Below the pieces are notes generated by a model. That model was not told the DNA's origin. It did no database searches and saw only the letters and a list, made by a program, of their open reading frames with translations. Positions 1,849 to 10,480 of a stretch of DNA of 64,000 nucleotides are shown piece by piece (the first letter of the stretch is position 1; every line of letters begins with the position of its first letter). This DNA is from Candidatus Nanoarchaeia archaeon. Its GTDB lineage: Archaea > Nanobdellota > Nanobdellia > SCGC-AAA011-G17 > JACPNG01. The stretch covers positions 243,636-307,635 of the forward strand of contig JAQTMK010000001.1 in assembly GCA_028714375.1 (NCBI GenBank), given 5' to 3'. The position numbers and the translations under genes are program-made.

Positions 1849-2064
1849 ATGTATGGACAGAGTTTTGGACATTCCATAGCATCTAAAAAGGGATGGAATA
1901 AGAGTAAACTAAAAGAGGGAGCTATAAAGATTGCTAAAAAACAAGCAATTTCCTATGCTACAGGATATATCGTTAATCCAGTAGCAACCGATATCCTTGT
2001 TGGAAAAGGTGTGCCAAGAAAAAAGGCTAAAACCATTGTAGATATTGCAAGTAAATTTATCTAA
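1849..2064 (+). CDS. Hypothetical small basic protein, possibly part of the IS element
   Basis: 71 aa ORF with no recognisable motif; its stop overlaps the transposase stop codon (convergent). Confidence 0.25.
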   Translation: MYGQSFGHSIASKKGWNKSKLKEGAIKIAKKQAISYATGYIVNPVATDILVGKGVPRKKAKTIVDIASKFI

Positions 2065-3605
2065 GGTGGGTCTTCATAAGCTACCCTATAAAGAACCACA
2101 GCAAACAGCTTTGAACTAATCAGAGGTTTATCTATCAACCTTCCATAAATAGCTAGAGAAACGCAAAGATTGACCAAAACCCACAGATTGAATAGACAGG
2201 TTGAAAATAAAAAATAAAACAATCTAATATGAAAATTCTTTGAAGTCGTTCTGGGTTTGAAATCATGTTCTAATTGCCTATATTTAGTTTCAATACCCCA
2301 TCTTGCAGAATAAAATCTAAATAAATAATGTGTGAGTGGGACAGGCATATCCAAGTTTGTGGAGAAGGCTCTTTTTATTCCATCTTGATCATCTACTAAA
2401 ACTAAATTAGTGGTTTCATCTCCGATCTTAAAATCTTTTATTACTCTTGCCTTACAGTCTTCTGATTTATCATACCATTGTTTAACTGTTGGACTTTTTA
2501 TCTTAGGCATTAAATACTTAACATTATTTTGTTTTAGGATTCTTATTACGGATGGCTTATCAAAACCCCTATCAAGATATACTTTATGAATGTGTATTTT
2601 CTCTTTTGCTCTTTTAATTAATTTTTCAACTAAATCTTCTTGAGAGTCTACTGGATGGATCATTAAAGCATCTATCGTAAATCTTCTTCCAGCAACAACA
2701 ATTGAACAAGTCATAAACTTAAAGAAATTACTTGTTCCTTTGTCTTGCTTTCCACCCATAACAAATTGATCTGCTTTATCTCCATAATAAGGGATTTCAT
2801 GGATATCTATAGCAACATCTAACATCCGTCTATTAAGTAAATTATAATTTTTCTTAGAAAACTCAAAGATAACATCAAAAATATTTCTAAAAGTCTCTTC
2901 TATTCCTTCTTTTTGGTTTAATTTTTTTAAGTGATAAAGGATGGTTTCTCGTGCAGGGCATCCTATATCTGGATTTAATTCTTTAAAAGTTTCAACTCCA
3001 TTCGTACAAAAGTCATGAGTCTGAGCAATATGAACTAAAACATCTAATAGATCTCTTGTTGTGAACTTAGCATTATGTCTTAGCTTAATTTCTATTTGTG
3101 GGTAAACTAATCTCTTGACTAATCTTACTGCTTCTTTGAAAGCTTTATTCTTTTCATTAAGCTTATTTTTATGTTCTTTTATGACTTTGTTTACTAAGCC
3201 TATATCTAAAATGACACGATTTTGGGTAGCTATGGATAGTATTTTCTCAACAATTTTATCTAAAAACATAATTTTTTCCTTATCCAAACTCTTCTGTAAA
3301 AATTCATTAAATGTTCTTTTTTTAGGAAAGATTAAATTATCATTATCATCTTTAAAGAATCCTAGATTGTATGCTTCTCTTTTATTGTTGTTAAAATAGT
3401 CTTCTATTTGGGGGTATGTAGAAAATCCTTTAATCCTCTTGAACAGATATATCTTAATTAAGGATTCTGAAGAGAAAATATGGTTCTTAGCATCTAAGAT
3501 CGGTAAGGATAAATTTAGTTTAGAAAGAATATAGGAAATCTTAGTAGAATAACAACTACTAAGACTCCCAAAAATTTTATTAAGTTCATTTTCTATTCCC
3601 TCCAT
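2061..3605 (-). CDS. IS4/IS5-superfamily DDE transposase
   Basis: 514 aa; C-terminal YSARWGIETKYRQLEHDFK is the Y-R-E-K signature of IS4-family DDE transposases; acidic residues (DRGF, DALMIH) sit in the RNase H-like core. Confidence 0.8.
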   Translation of the reverse strand: MEGIENELNKIFGSLSSCYSTKISYILSKLNLSLPILDAKNHIFSSESLIKIYLFKRIKGFSTYPQIEDYFNNNKREAYNLGFFKDDNDNLIFPKKRTFNEFLQKSLDKEKIMFLDKIVEKILSIATQNRVILDIGLVNKVIKEHKNKLNEKNKAFKEAVRLVKRLVYPQIEIKLRHNAKFTTRDLLDVLVHIAQTHDFCTNGVETFKELNPDIGCPARETILYHLKKLNQKEGIEETFRNIFDVIFEFSKKNYNLLNRRMLDVAIDIHEIPYYGDKADQFVMGGKQDKGTSNFFKFMTCSIVVAGRRFTIDALMIHPVDSQEDLVEKLIKRAKEKIHIHKVYLDRGFDKPSVIRILKQNNVKYLMPKIKSPTVKQWYDKSEDCKARVIKDFKIGDETTNLVLVDDQDGIKRAFSTNLDMPVPLTHYLFRFYSARWGIETKYRQLEHDFKPRTTSKNFHIRLFYFLFSTCLFNLWVLVNLCVSLAIYGRLIDKPLISSKLFAVVLYRVAYEDPP

Positions 3606-3809: not shown

Positions 3810-4011
3810 GATATATCCTCCCTTACATTATATTTTATACCATCTTTTTCTCTTATCAAATTCCACTAGCTTGTTTTAGACAACTTCTAATATTTTAGTC
3901 CTACTATTTTAGAATAATCCCATTTATAAATTTTTCTAAACAAATAGGACTAAAATTTTCACCTTTCAGTGAATAAGAATATTTAAGTATTAGTCCTATT
4001 TAATTATAGTA

Positions 4012-4290
4012 ATGAAAAAAAATAGTCTTAAGAATCGAGATATCCAATTTGCCAAAATTGGAGAGTATGAAACTATTAAAAAAGAAAAAAAGATTGGTGC
4101 AGAAAAAATCAAAGAAGAACCCCTAGAAAGCCTTATTTATTTTGATGGCAGACAATACTCCTGTAAGATCCCAAAAAAAGTTATGGATACTGTTGGGTTT
4201 AGGAAAGGAGATAAATTAAAATTTACCTTAATAAAAATCCCAAGAGAAGGAGTAATCGAATTGGAGGTAGAGTATGTTAAATCCAGATAA
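4012..4290 (+). CDS. AbrB/MazE/SpoVT-like (swapped-hairpin) DNA-binding protein
   Basis: 92 aa; the C-terminal IPKKVMDTVGFRKGDKLKFTLIKIP resembles the AbrB/MazE looped-hinge-helix motif. Its 3' end overlaps the next gene by 17 nt. Confidence 0.5.
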   Translation: MKKNSLKNRDIQFAKIGEYETIKKEKKIGAEKIKEEPLESLIYFDGRQYSCKIPKKVMDTVGFRKGDKLKFTLIKIPREGVIELEVEYVKSR

Positions 4291-4525
4291 TTTTTCTGAA
4301 ATTGAGTTCAAAATCTTGAAGATTTTATTTTCAGGAATGAGATTTATGTCTACCAAGGAGATTTCAGTTAAAACTGGTTATGCCTGGGAAACTTGTTTAT
4401 CTTATCTGAAGGAACTTTATGAAGGAGGATATGTTCTCGTAAAAAAAACAACAAAACAACAAAACACAAGTTTATTATGGAAATTTAACTATGAAAGATA
4501 CAGGGATCTTAAAAAGCAATCTTAG
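4274..4525 (+). CDS. Winged helix-turn-helix transcriptional regulator
   Basis: 83 aa; MSTKEISVKTGYAWETCLSYLKELYEGGYV looks like an ArsR/MarR-type wHTH; coupled to the preceding gene. Confidence 0.5.
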   Translation: MLNPDNFSEIEFKILKILFSGMRFMSTKEISVKTGYAWETCLSYLKELYEGGYVLVKKTTKQQNTSLLWKFNYERYRDLKKQS

Positions 4526-4600
4526 TTTATTCACCTTATGTATTAATTCTGACTTAATTAATTAAATCTTAAAAAATTAAAAAAAGGAGTTATTAACTCC

Positions 4601-5161
4601 TTATTTCCAGGCAAGTGTGCTTATGCCTACTCCTACACCTTCAAAGATGAAGTTAGTTCTCCATGGTTTGTAGCTTTTAATGTATTTATAGACATTTGAG
4701 TTACTTGCGAAATGGAATTGTGTTGTTTTCCATTTATCAACTTCTACAACAGGTTCTCCTTTAACCATTGTAGTATCACACTCTGTGTTCTCATCTACAA
4801 AAGAACCCACAACAAAGTCTTTATTTCCTATTTCAACACTCAGGTCAAAGCTGTCGTCTGCATCACATCTGTCTAAGTAAGTTACATAAACATTTGAGAA
4901 TGAAGCAACTTTCTTCTTATTCAAGATTAAGTCTAAACTTGCTTCTGAATCCTCAATTATTCTATAACCTACTTTATATTTTTCTACTCCACTCCATCCT
5001 GTTAGAGTTAGGTCTTTATTTCCTTTCAAGGAAATCATTGTGTTTATGTTTTTTTGGTTTGCTAACTCAAAAACACTTGCGTCTTTTGGGATTGTAACTG
5101 CACTAGCAAAGCTTACAAATCCAACTAAAAATATAGCCAATATAGCTAGAATTTTATTCAT
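4601..5161 (-). CDS. Secreted hypothetical protein
   Basis: 186 aa; N-terminal signal peptide MNKILAILAIFLVGFVSFASA. Confidence 0.55.
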   Translation of the reverse strand: MNKILAILAIFLVGFVSFASAVTIPKDASVFELANQKNINTMISLKGNKDLTLTGWSGVEKYKVGYRIIEDSEASLDLILNKKKVASFSNVYVTYLDRCDADDSFDLSVEIGNKDFVVGSFVDENTECDTTMVKGEPVVEVDKWKTTQFHFASNSNVYKYIKSYKPWRTNFIFEGVGVGISTLAWK

Positions 5162-5298
5162 TTTAATCCTCCATATTTAGTTACCCCTTTTATTGTTACT
5201 TTCTAACAATAGTGATAATATATAAAGCTTTTGGTATCCATTTGGTATGGATAACCAAAAAAGAATATATTTTGAAACGTGTTAGAGAGGTATGTCAA

Positions 5299-5457
5299 AT
5301 GGTTAGCAAATACACAAATATCGGACTCCCTGATGAATTAATAAAAGCAATAGATGACATTATCAAGAATTCTAAGTTAGGTTATAAGTCAAGAGGGGAA
5401 TTTGTCAAGGAAGCTGTAAGGGTTTCTCTAATGAAGATTAGAGAACATAAAAAGTGA
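5299..5457 (+). CDS. Ribbon-helix-helix (CopG/NikR-like) DNA-binding protein
   Basis: IGLPDELIKAIDDIIKNSKLGYKSRGEFVKEAVRVSL is a classic RHH pattern. The track ORF starts at 5212, but M at 5299 (MVSKYTNIG) is the more plausible start. Confidence 0.55.
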   Translation: MVSKYTNIGLPDELIKAIDDIIKNSKLGYKSRGEFVKEAVRVSLMKIREHKK

Positions 5458-5633
5458 TCTAAATAAGGATTGGATATTAGAACAATTAAAAAGAATCCAG
5501 ATATTTCTATGTCTTCTTTAGAAAGGAAGATTGGACGAATCCTTCTTCTTTGAGAGAACATTGTGAACAATTGGAAGAGCTAGGATTGATTAAGATTAAA
5601 AAAAGTGAAAAAGACTACAAGATTAAAGATTAT

Positions 5634-6473
5634 TTAATCTGTTGAAGATGCTCTAAGAAGAAATTCCTTTGGGGTAATTGGTTCTAAACCATAATATGCT
5701 TTTATCTCATTATGGACTTTAAAAAAGGTTTGATCGTCACTTCCTCTGAAAGGAATAAATATATGGTCACAAGAAACGAAATAGAAAGTAGGGGTAATCT
5801 TTAATTCATCTTTCATTTTATTGTAACAATATATTGCTTCAGCCAAAATTCTAAGATCATTTATTTTCTTATAATTTCCAAATTTATAAAATGGCTCTAA
5901 TAACTTTTTTAGATTTTGATATTCTGGATAATCTTTATCTTTTATTAAAAAACCTTCATTAACTCCTTTTCTCTCAAAGTAGTCTATTAAATAATCTTGT
6001 CTTATTTTGAGCGGTTTAAATATTTTACTAAATAATTCATCTCTCAATCCTTCAACAGAAACATCATCTACTGCTATAGAACCAAACTGATCTAAGATAT
6101 CATAAGTAATTGAGGGAAATTTAACAAAAAATATTTGAAAAAGAAGGTAATCAAACACTTTTTTATCCTCAATAGGTAATTTACTTATCCTTTTTGGTAA
6201 TTTTAATTTTTCAATAATCTTCTTTTCTAATTGCTCCTTTTTTTGTAATAAATTTCTAATCTCTCTCTTTACACCATATGAAACAAAGGGATCTAATTCT
6301 CCTTTTTTCTTCATTACATACTCTATTAATTCATAAGAATGTTTATATCTCTCGGGTTTAGATATTAATCCTTTTTCTATATCCATTTTAAGATAATTGT
6401 TGGATTCTAATAATTTGTATTGAGCTGCACCCAAAATAACACTTGTTTCAAAAAATAATTTGGCTGAAATCAT
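5634..6473 (-). CDS. Hypothetical protein (279 aa), downstream member of a coupled pair
   Basis: Long ORF with no confidently recognised domain. Its start codon overlaps the stop of the upstream gene (TAATG on the minus strand). Confidence 0.55.
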   Translation of the reverse strand: MISAKLFFETSVILGAAQYKLLESNNYLKMDIEKGLISKPERYKHSYELIEYVMKKKGELDPFVSYGVKREIRNLLQKKEQLEKKIIEKLKLPKRISKLPIEDKKVFDYLLFQIFFVKFPSITYDILDQFGSIAVDDVSVEGLRDELFSKIFKPLKIRQDYLIDYFERKGVNEGFLIKDKDYPEYQNLKKLLEPFYKFGNYKKINDLRILAEAIYCYNKMKDELKITPTFYFVSCDHIFIPFRGSDDQTFFKVHNEIKAYYGLEPITPKEFLLRASSTD

Positions 6474-7018
6474 TATAATTCAGAGATTAGTTCGTTAGTT
6501 TCATTAAGAACTTTAACTAAAATCTCTTCTCCTTCTTTATTACTAAACAGGATCCGATCTTCTTTATAGATTGCGTCTTCTTTGGAGAGTTTTATTAAAA
6601 TTCTAATAGAGTCATTTAATGTGACAAAACATTCATTTTCTATTTTATTTGAATCATATATATTTTTTAAAGAATCAATAATTAATCTAATAAAAACTAA
6701 ATAATCTCTATCTAAAATTCTTTTTGCAGCTATTGGGTTTTGATGAGCCATTTTTGCATTTGTCAAGTTATCTTTTAGATTTAAACAAATGTCTTTTGTA
6801 GTGATAGCCGCACCAAAAGTGATTATTTGATCCATCATTTTTTGATCAAATTTATTAAAGAAAACATTTCCCATTTCTTCAAAATCTTTAGCTAATTTAT
6901 CAAAACATTCGATCACTTGAGGTGAAATCTCTTTTTGTTCAATACTTTTTTTTAGTAATTCATCTATATGAAAAATTAAATTTTCACTTTGATCGAGATT
7001 ACATGTTTTATGATCCAT
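6473..7018 (-). CDS. Hypothetical protein (181 aa), upstream member of a coupled pair
   Basis: Long ORF; translationally coupled to the 5634-6473 gene. Confidence 0.55.
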   Translation of the reverse strand: MDHKTCNLDQSENLIFHIDELLKKSIEQKEISPQVIECFDKLAKDFEEMGNVFFNKFDQKMMDQIITFGAAITTKDICLNLKDNLTNAKMAHQNPIAAKRILDRDYLVFIRLIIDSLKNIYDSNKIENECFVTLNDSIRILIKLSKEDAIYKEDRILFSNKEGEEILVKVLNETNELISEL

Positions 7019-7220
7019 CTTTCAATTTATAAATAAAAGTGTATGAGAACATTTTATAGAAAGTAATCTCCAATGGATTACCCAACCCCTTTTTCATACA
7101 TATCTATAAAATATCCCCTTATATAAATGTAACATTATCACTTGATAGTTAATATTTAAACTTTTCGTTTATCCAAACTATATGTATTAAATTATTTCAA
7201 AATTAGATTATTTAAAAGAA

Positions 7221-7658
7221 TTGTTTGAGTTGAGAAAAATTTATCTATTTGGAGTTATCTGCCAAAAGATGAAATCCACTGAAAAAATTGCAGACTCTCT
7301 AGAAAAATTCTTGGTAAGATTACAGAGGGCTAACTCTTTGATTATAGAAAGAGAAAAACATCCAGTATTAAAATCTCAAGTTTGGGAATTAGCTAGGATG
7401 TTTATAAGGGTAATATTTTATTTTCTTCTTATCTTTGGAGGGTATCTACTCACTACACTGCCTCAAATTCTTAAGTCAAAGAGTCTATTTTTTGGATTTG
7501 CCTTATATGTGATCCTATTAATAGTTATGTATGAGGTTTTGATAATGTATTTAATGAAAAAATTAAAATGTTTATTAAGAAAGCTCATGAAACCTATGGA
7601 AAAGATTTTAAAAATCAAACCAATCAGCAAGAAAGTGGAGGCAAAAAATAAATGTTAA
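7221..7658 (+). CDS. Small membrane protein (2 predicted TM helices), partner of the Doc-like toxin
   Basis: Hydrophobic segments VIFYFLLIFGGYLLTTL and LFFGFALYVILLIVMYEVLIMYLM; the 3' end overlaps the Doc gene by 7 nt. Alternative start at 7269 (MKSTEK). Confidence 0.5.
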   Translation: MFELRKIYLFGVICQKMKSTEKIADSLEKFLVRLQRANSLIIEREKHPVLKSQVWELARMFIRVIFYFLLIFGGYLLTTLPQILKSKSLFFGFALYVILLIVMYEVLIMYLMKKLKCLLRKLMKPMEKILKIKPISKKVEAKNKC

Positions 7659-8083
7659 CTAATGAAGAAGTTATTAAACACAATAAACATATTATTGATG
7701 TTAGTGGAGGAGATTTTGGGGTACTCCAAAGAGGAGATCTAGATTTTATTGTAGATTCTTCAAATCAAGCAAAAACTATCATAGATAAGGCTACGAGTCT
7801 TCTTTATGGTATCGCAAATAGTCATTCATTTCTTAATGGAAATAAAAGAACTGCTTTTGAACTTTCAAAGGGAGTCTTGGAATCTGGAGGATACGCTTTT
7901 ACTGCTAGCCCAGAAAGTATAATTGGATTTATAGGGGGCATAGCCCAAGATCAAGTGTCTAAACCACAAGTCAAAGAATGGATTACAACCAATTCACATT
8001 TTACAGGAAGTACTTTAAATTTGACTAGCATAGTCACAGAAAACATTAATAAAGATAAGGAACTATTAAAAAAATTAGATTAA
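7652..8083 (+). CDS. Doc/Fic-family protein (death-on-curing-like toxin)
   Basis: 143 aa; HSFLNGNKRTAFELSKGVL matches the Doc-type Fic motif HxFx(D/N)GNKR. Confidence 0.7.
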   Translation: MLTNEEVIKHNKHIIDVSGGDFGVLQRGDLDFIVDSSNQAKTIIDKATSLLYGIANSHSFLNGNKRTAFELSKGVLESGGYAFTASPESIIGFIGGIAQDQVSKPQVKEWITTNSHFTGSTLNLTSIVTENINKDKELLKKLD

Positions 8084-9966: not shown

Positions 9967-10305
9967 CTAAACCAACTTCAGATTCCTTGTAACAGAATCT
10001 ATTTTCTCATCCTCATCAGGACCAATACCAACACAGGTAATAGTTCCAGGTTCAACCTCAGTCCTGCCAGCGTCTTTAATTAAAGCAGTAACCAAACCAA
10101 CATCTTTAGCTAATTGATTATACTTCAATAAATCTTTAAGATTATCAGCTTTGAGAACAACTTTTTTCATGCCCTCTTTCTGCCAGTCATTAACTTTTTT
10201 CCTGTCTGATTTAAGAACAGCCTCAACAGAAGCATGACTGCACTGTGCACTCATCTTCCCTTTGCTTAATTTTAAATCATTTCTGACAATAATTGCTTGT
10301 TTCAT
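9967..10305 (-). CDS. pth2: Peptidyl-tRNA hydrolase, archaeal type (Pth2)
   Basis: MKQAIIVRNDLKLSKGKMSAQCSHASVEA...GLVTALIKDAGRTEVEPGTITCVGIGP is the Pth2 signature. The track ORF extends to 10434 only because it reads through the antisense of tRNA-Pro; the start is trimmed to M at 10305. Confidence 0.85.
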   Translation of the reverse strand: MKQAIIVRNDLKLSKGKMSAQCSHASVEAVLKSDRKKVNDWQKEGMKKVVLKADNLKDLLKYNQLAKDVGLVTALIKDAGRTEVEPGTITCVGIGPDEDEKIDSVTRNLKLV

Positions 10306-10358
10306 ATTATTCTTCAAGAAAAGCTTTATAAATACTTTGTGGTTGAAAACATCAAGAA

Positions 10359-10433
10359 GGGGCTGTGGTGTAGCCTGGTCCAGCATTAAAGGTTTGGGAC
10401 CTTTCGACCCAGGTTCGAATCCTGGCAGCCCCA
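10359..10433 (+). tRNA. tRNA-Pro (anticodon TGG)
   Basis: Acceptor GGGGCTG/CAGCCCC; T arm CCAGGTTCGAATCCTGG; anticodon stem AAAGG/CCTTT with loop TTTGGGA; discriminator A; no encoded CCA. Confidence 0.8.
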
Positions 10434-10480
10434 TTTCATAATAGAAACCTTTTTAAATGAAGTAAAAATCAATCTTTAAA

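Follow-up and report, generated by a model that had tools for sequence, protein, structure and literature searches.

Background

PIN-domain toxins form the largest group of prokaryotic toxin-antitoxin effectors and, famously diverse as they are, hardly ever escape recognition by sequence models. In the present study we describe a pair of adjacent minus-strand genes, here called A and B, in a 64,000-nucleotide stretch of archaeal DNA (hereafter the window; positions 243,636 to 307,635 of JAQTMK010000001.1, a 382-kb contig from a metagenome-assembled genome (MAG) of Candidatus Nanoarchaeia). On balance we are inclined to read the pair as a mobile VapBC-like (type II) toxin-antitoxin (TA) module, in which protein A would neutralise protein B, a predicted PIN-like nuclease whose family escapes all the sequence models tested and has an unusually large, split helical insertion.

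The core of the PIN domain is an alpha/beta/alpha Rossmann-like sandwich in which five strands (S1-S5) run parallel and a helix (H4) forms the crossover. Acidic residues are nearly invariant at three places, directly behind S1, at the N-terminal end of H4 and behind S4; a fourth usually follows S2, and in VapC-like proteins it is a Glu on a helical insert (PMC5499597). In VapBC and FitAB, the cleft made by this kind of helical insert takes the C-terminal helix of the antitoxin (PMC5499597). Some divergent VapC-like families, such as DUF1308, whose C-terminal domain was classed as a VapC-like PIN domain by Matelska et al. 2017 (PMC5499597), are detectable only by remote or structural methods and have helical regions beside the active site (PMC5499597). 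HARP (PIN_5), the minimal protein-only ribonuclease P (RNase P), has a PIN domain split by an internal helical domain (PMC10941002).

The two genes and their junction

A preliminary description of this region had singled out two long minus-strand open reading frames (ORFs), sharing a TAATG stop/start overlap, as real and coupled genes, and this stands: the coordinates are confirmed, the lengths lie beyond chance, and the homologues are conserved. At the stop frequency of about 0.097 per codon expected from local composition, the probability of meeting no stop is 4.6e-13 over 279 codons and 1e-8 over 181 codons, and because both A and B have conserved homologues they are real genes. At the junction the plus strand reads CATTA, and the TAA stop of A (6475-6473) and the ATG of B (6473-6471) have one base in common. 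The overlap had been taken as strong evidence; it does indicate an operon, yet it is unexceptional, since 1- and 4-base overlaps are common among adjacent genes in the window. Across six loci the junction varies between an overlap of 4 nt and a gap of 24 nt, and the loci L013 and L014 are similarly tight. Position 5212, from which the feature had been made to start, is the beginning of a GTG-extended form of a neighbouring ribbon-helix-helix (RHH) ORF and lies outside the pair.

Protein B, a predicted PIN-like nuclease

Searches with B gave no match in Pfam, NCBIfam, PADLOC, PHROGs or the PDB sequences. In Pfam none of eight B members or core-only constructs found a match even at E<=10, so that B is without a match to PF08745 (PIN_5), PF07000 (DUF1308), and PF01850 or related PIN models; PDB searches with full and core-only B profiles returned no PIN chain and nothing relevant. 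The B family, 258-288 aa in length, is very rare: a word-indexed search of 5.8 billion proteins returned the query plus a single relative (48% identical), and an exhaustive HMMER search of 1.84 billion cluster representatives with the B profile returned seven credible members (P0001, P0004-P0008 and the distant P0010). Two further candidates from the representative search, P0009 and P0011, were rejected as repeat-protein false positives.

The structure that AlphaFold2 predicted for B from an 8-sequence alignment is a confident one (predicted local distance difference test, pLDDT, 88.9; predicted template modelling score, pTM, 0.86), in which residues 205-223 form the crossover helix and the strands cover residues 4-8, 60-65, 131-133, 229-233 and 264-266, that is, the PIN arrangement of strands and helix (PMC5499597) as far as the prediction goes. 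In a Foldseek comparison of this model with the PDB, the high-probability matches were almost all PIN-like. The top neighbour was 5ecw, a VapC of Shigella (prob 0.99, TM 0.64 normalised to target), and it was accompanied by further VapC structures (3zvk, 6a7v and 5k8j, from Rickettsia, M. tuberculosis and Caulobacter), by the non-VapC PIN proteins PAE2754 and AF1683, and by HARP (7e8j, prob 0.77; 8ssf, prob 0.80). The best neighbour in the viral library BFVD was DUF1308 (prob 0.97). None of the PDB matches was better than E = 0.04, and Rossmann-like cyclodipeptide synthases were also among them.

When the acidic residues of the family are placed relative to the secondary structure of the model, four of them, E/D9, E71, D206 and D236, fall at the four positions expected of a PIN active site (PMC5499597; conservation and codons in Table 1), with the Glu on the helix after S2 that is the VapC-type layout. 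The preliminary description had named no domain in either protein; sequence models are indeed silent on both, whereas for B the predicted structure together with these residues points to a PIN-like nuclease fold. The predicted core is split by two helical insertions, about 110 aa together, which hold the conserved residues R144, D145, P154 and R158 and the invariant E184, and for this reason we regard them as functional and not decorative. The protein is basic to neutral, with an isoelectric point (pI) of 6.5-8.9 across members and 8.9 in the window.

Protein A, its constant partner

Protein A, too, had no match in Pfam, NCBIfam, PADLOC, PHROGs or the PDB, including a search of the PDB with the A profile, and sequence models found no DNA-binding domain (AbrB, RHH, Phd/YefM or helix-turn-helix) in any of seven A-family members (155-194 aa). 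Its model, built on a 3-sequence alignment (pLDDT 83.8), has a confident six-helix bundle at residues 8-147, followed by a C-terminal helix (161-180) that is conserved in sequence and modelled at low confidence. The sole invariant internal residues of the family are N94 and P95, and the short NPIAAE helix that they open is highly conserved. The protein is acidic, with a pI of 4.7-5.4 in the closer members and 4.9 in the window. In contrast to B, Foldseek returned for A scattered, low-probability, generic helical bundles and no informative neighbour. Going by its model, A is a new helical protein without known relatives outside the A family.

Distribution and mobility of the cassette

Relatives of B were found in ten distinct loci. 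Nine of these (the window, L001, L002, L005, L008, L009, L010, L013 and L014) contain sequence upstream of B, and in 9/9 an A homologue lies directly upstream; in the tenth, L019, the contig ends short of the position expected for A. The identities of A and B drop in parallel across the loci. The hosts identified are Nanoarchaeia, Micrarchaeota and Thermoproteota/Verstraetearchaeota, and as far as sampled the family is limited to DPANN archaea and one Thermoproteota MAG.

What surrounds the pair changes from locus to locus. In the window it lies among Doc, AbrB/MazE-like and RHH genes and an insertion sequence (IS); in L002 beside a restriction-modification methylase, a PDDEXK protein and an IS; in L005 beside a TaqI_C protein and EF-1alpha; in L008 a RIO1 kinase, in L009 a DUF234 protein and in L013 aIF5A; in L014 FtsZ and an HNH endonuclease; and in L010, from a Micrarchaeota genome of 60% guanine plus cytosine (GC), between MCM and ribosomal protein L1. 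An all-against-all comparison of the neighbouring ORFs found no conserved neighbour, except that the IS transposases of the window and L002 are related. The pair is no housekeeping pair, nor one of a syntenic core.

The GC content of the pair lies below that of its flanks in every locus with an informative flank: 0.256 against 0.315 in the window, where the pair falls in the 1st percentile among stretches of its size, 0.283 against 0.359 in L002, 0.281 against 0.399 in L005, 0.367 against 0.507 in L008, 0.456 against 0.554 in L009, and 0.371 against 0.598 in L010, while in L014 A has 0.239 and B 0.283 against 0.30-0.46 in neighbouring genes. Because the contexts all differ, the GC content looks foreign and the hosts span phyla, the pattern is to all appearances that of a small, selfish, laterally transferred cassette and not of a housekeeping pair. 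A viral or plasmid origin is unsupported, as no relatives were present in IMG/VR, the INPHARED phages or the PLSDB plasmids.

Two copies of B appear broken. In L013 the B homologue (4653-5497) is split by a frameshift at 4826-4831 and the A homologue upstream (4126-4656) is intact, a combination that fits a decay in which the putative toxin goes first; in L019 the B homologue (3-807), in which the contig starts, is frameshifted near residue 150. The ratio of nonsynonymous to synonymous substitution rates could not be used, the variants being >99.9% identical or else saturated.

Genomic surroundings of the pair in the window

The stretch around the pair, bounded by a 5S rRNA gene (1611-1726) on one side and by Pth2 and tRNA-Pro (from 9967) on the other, is low in GC and holds an IS transposase and TA-like genes, which bears out the accessory island of the preliminary description. 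The place given there to the RHH gene has to be revised. The Pfam match of the gene itself is borderline (RHH_1, E = 0.0014; 19 bits, the cutoff being 20.5 bits); it had been called divergent and had been cast as the regulator of the pair, but it is convergent, the divergent neighbour being in fact the membrane-ORF/Doc operon. Moreover, a frameshifted winged helix-turn-helix (wHTH) gene intervenes and no RHH or wHTH gene stands beside the pair in any other locus, so that the regulatory role falls away. With its frames merged, the wHTH gene matches HTH_24 at E = 1.2e-6 and also exceeds the Pfam cutoff for MarR. At its 3' end it overlaps B, over the stop, by 12 nt, and it is either a pseudogene or the product of an assembly error.

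The intergenic region that the pair has in common with the Doc operon presumably holds the A-B promoter, with the TATA-like elements TTTCTATAAAAT and TTTATAAAT upstream of the ATG of A. No convincing operator palindrome or repeat was seen in the promoter region (6990-7300), where the repeats are AT-rich and of the kind expected by chance; no Rfam element lies inside or adjoining the pair, and neither A nor B has a paralogue elsewhere in the window.

Table 1. Features of the A-B pair and its immediate neighbours, in window coordinates.
Feature	Position	Strand	Remarks
Gene A	6473..7018	-	181 aa, PHE43_01515 / MDD5331484.1; acidic all-alpha protein, proposed antitoxin/partner
Gene B	5634..6473	-	279 aa, PHE43_01510 / MDD5331483.1; predicted PIN-like (VapC-type) metallonuclease, proposed toxin/effector
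TAATG stop/start overlap of A and B	6471..6475	-	translational-coupling junction, read directly from the sequence
B residue E9 (codon)	6447..6449	-	directly after S1 (4-8); Asp or Glu in all members with the N-terminus
B residue E71 (codon)	6261..6263	-	on helix 66-77 after S2 (60-65); kept in 7/7 members covering the position
B residue D206 (codon)	5856..5858	-	N-terminus of crossover helix H4 (205-223), motif D-x-x-I-L-x-E-A; invariant, 8/8
B residue D236 (codon)	5766..5768	-	after S4 (229-233), motif F-Y-F-V-S-x-D; invariant, 8/8
B insertions, residues 79-198	5880..6239	-	helical, 79-127 and 137-198, either side of S3 (131-133)
A motif (E/D/Q)-N-P-I-A-A-E/K-R	6719..6742	-	residues 93-100; opens short helix 94-103
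RHH gene	5299-5457	+	convergent (tail to tail) with the A-B pair
wHTH gene, MarR/HTH_24-type	5470-5645	+	between the RHH gene and B; frameshift at about 5534/5535
Intergenic region	7019..7220		common to the A-B pair and the membrane-ORF/Doc operon, divergent
Membrane-ORF/Doc operon	7221/7269-8083	+	actual divergent neighbour of the A-B pair

Several other features of the surroundings deserve mention. In the divergent operon a Doc/Fic toxin gene (7652-8083; Fic E = 8.4e-7, motif HSFLNGNKR) is preceded by an ORF of 129-145 aa with hydrophobic, membrane-like segments (7221/7269-7658, +) that overlaps the start of Doc by 7 nt. The usual partner of Doc is a small antitoxin of the Phd type, and a membrane-like ORF as its upstream gene is therefore an unusual arrangement. 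At 3889-4000, nested inverted repeats with AGTCCTA/TAGGACT cores and 30-nt arms (83% complementary) look like an operator; they lie directly upstream of an AbrB/MazE-like gene (4012-4290) and an overlapping wHTH gene (4274-4525). The transposase of the window (DDE_Tnp_1, 514 aa, 2061-3605, minus strand) is 38% identical to that of L002 (10940-12346), which lies 4 kb from the A-B pair there; related IS elements are thus found with the cassette at two loci that are unrelated in other respects. On the far side of the island, the longest ORF of the Pth2 peptidyl-tRNA hydrolase (9967-10434, minus strand) overlaps tRNA-Pro(TGG) (10359-10433, plus strand), and the Met at 10302 is probably where the protein really begins, because from this residue on the PTH2 domain is matched over its full length. 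In L010, the gene immediately preceding the cassette (4250-7402, 1050 aa), which encodes the MCM helicase, appears, judging from its translation, to hold an insertion of intein-like character whose middle segment is LAGLIDADG/Hint-like.

Proposed mechanism and its alternatives

In the mechanism that we propose, A and B make up a self-contained, horizontally transferred two-gene cassette that would be VapBC-like in action. B would be a Mg2+/Mn2+-dependent PIN-like endonuclease with E9, E71, D206 and D236 as its active site and RNA as its most likely substrate, and its two conserved helical insertions probably form a substrate-binding surface and a cleft that receives the partner. A, translated first from the mRNA common to both genes, would bind B and hold it inactive, probably through its most conserved elements, namely the short N-P-I-A-A-E-R helix, the amphipathic helix at the C-terminus, which is conserved but modelled at low confidence, or both; each of the two could play the cleft-filling part known from VapB. 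Were A lost or titrated, upon loss of the cassette, stress or infection, free B would be expected to degrade RNA and to arrest the cell. It is the gene order, the coupling, the charge asymmetry, the VapC-type active-site layout and the signature of mobility that lead us to prefer a TA module, along with the TA-like, restriction-type and IS genes around some of the copies and the decay pattern of B, and an undescribed defence or toxin system, for which the preliminary description had found the context typical, remains the best reading now that the RHH regulator has been taken out of it. The observation made there is thereby confirmed and its interpretation supported in part.

A number of points weigh against a TA module of this type. 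Single sequences as well as full and core-only profiles leave the B family without a sequence or profile link to any PIN family in Pfam, NCBIfam or the PDB; hhalign gives the B core a probability of 1.3%, which is not significant, against a small VapC/FitB/PAE0151 profile (its sequences verified against the PDB), and the sole segment of this non-significant alignment pairs D206 of B with the catalytic D98 motif of VapC. Since such a link is missing, the fold assignment rests on a structure predicted from eight sequences, and every Foldseek E-value of B, in the PDB and BFVD together, is 0.03 or worse. With its 258-288 aa B is twice as large as VapC (roughly 130 aa), owing to the insertions that flank S3. 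A is 2-3 times as large as VapB usually is, no DNA-binding domain can be recognised in it, and its degree of conservation is about that of B, a pattern which suggests that A does more than plug B passively. Assembly errors could account for the frameshifts in B, that of L013 lying in a G6 homopolymer run. In L016, a Micrarchaeota-type contig, it is A (316-786) that has suffered an in-frame deletion of 20 aa relative to the A of L010 (7463-7990), with B intact; the deletion removes FYTTLQHNLTAQIIAYGASE, including the conserved Q-x-I-x-(F/Y)-G-A segment, from a cassette otherwise 99.9% identical. Finally, the PADLOC-DB 2.0 models of known and candidate defence proteins match neither A nor B at E<=1.

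How much do these points favour something else? If the PIN assignment were wrong or the domain inactive, the pair would be a conserved mobile cassette of unrelated, structural or regulatory, function, and the silence of the sequence and profile models, the weak Foldseek E-values with cyclodipeptide synthases in their midst, and the shallow alignment behind the model would all be understandable. We think this quite improbable, for PIN proteins dominate the high-probability matches in two independent libraries, the same procedure gave scattered low-probability matches for A, and it is difficult to account in any other way for the conservation of an acidic residue at each of the four canonical PIN positions. 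Granted an active PIN domain, the rank of HARP among the structural neighbours, the split of its PIN domain by an inserted helical domain (PMC10941002) and the conservation of the insertions in B would suit an enzyme of RNA maturation, like HARP or Nob1, with A as an accessory subunit and without toxicity. Such a role fits poorly with so rare a family (7 credible members among 1.84 billion representatives), scattered sporadically across phyla in varying contexts and with foreign-looking GC, and it appears the least probable of all: B has no match to PIN_5 (PF08745), is seemingly frameshifted in two loci, and its host already has the RNase P protein subunit Rpr2/Rpp21.

Defence is a more serious contender, although we consider it rather unlikely. 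The pair would then be a two-component system against viruses or plasmids, A being a sensor or specificity subunit and B an effector nuclease triggered by infection, as in abortive infection. Some of its sites do resemble defence islands (the restriction-modification methylase, PDDEXK protein and IS of L002, the TaqI_C protein of L005, Doc in the window), the signature of horizontal transfer is strong, and a large, well-conserved A with an invariant motif suits an active role; against this, neither protein matches a PADLOC model, and several loci lie amid plain core genes without defence neighbours (MCM and L1 in L010, aIF5A in L013, RIO1 in L008). Defence and TA are inseparable by sequence alone, and many TA modules act in defence too. 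We would also give some limited credit to the thought that the cassette, rather than a toxin with a passive plug, is a new two-subunit RNA-targeting system specific to small-genome archaea. In it the conserved split helical domain of B, like the spike-helix of HARP, would measure and pick out a structured RNA, for instance a site in tRNA or rRNA, and A, whose fold has no known relatives and whose N-P helix cap motif is invariant, would take an active part as sensor or regulatory subunit. If true, this would be a new class of defence or TA system with both partners from previously unrecognised families.

The genomes of these hosts are tiny, which makes it conspicuous when a selfish or defence cassette is retained in them. 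If the VapBC-like module is confirmed, both its antitoxin fold and its VapC-like architecture would be new to the catalogue, and it would offer a handle on the RNA-targeting conflict systems of episymbiotic archaea. The practical consequence is modest: two families of 'hypothetical proteins' obtain a testable annotation.

Comparison with known systems

The likeness to VapBC and FitAB lies in the organisation of the operon, in which an antitoxin-like gene precedes the gene for a PIN-type nuclease and the two are coupled in translation. The bicistronic layout of such modules, with the antitoxin gene upstream of the toxin gene and overlapping or abutting it, is seen here as TAATG in the window and as the same order with tight junctions elsewhere. 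It lies also in the charges, the partner A being acidic and the nuclease B basic; in the VapC-type layout predicted for the active site of B, with its Glu on the helix after S2; and, as for VapBC, in a mobile and sporadic cassette. The differences from VapBC are equally plain. B is not a compact single PIN domain of the PF01850 type, A is an all-helical protein of 155-194 aa in place of an antitoxin with an AbrB, RHH, Phd or HTH DNA-binding domain, and sequence models of VapB and VapC match neither of the two, as the hhalign result also reflects. With a double-sized putative toxin of split core, a large, well-conserved putative antitoxin devoid of a DNA-binding domain and no sequence similarity, we do not file the pair as a member of VapBC.

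Of the other PIN proteins, HARP resembles B in its split domain and is its structural neighbour. The insertion of B is, in contrast, much larger and in two parts, a PIN_5 sequence match is lacking, and the distribution of B resembles that of a mobile cassette; HARP has been described as a homo-oligomer without a partner protein, whereas B is always paired with A. The C-terminal domain of DUF1308, the best neighbour in BFVD, belongs to a family that is mainly eukaryotic, cyanobacterial and giant-viral, is usually fused to PD-(D/E)XK and probably lacks some of the acidic residues, whereas B is archaeal and keeps the full set. Set beside these systems, the logic of the pair would be the VapBC-like one already known, and what appears to be new is a previously unrecognised PIN-like family of unusual architecture, as predicted, together with a partner that has no known relatives.

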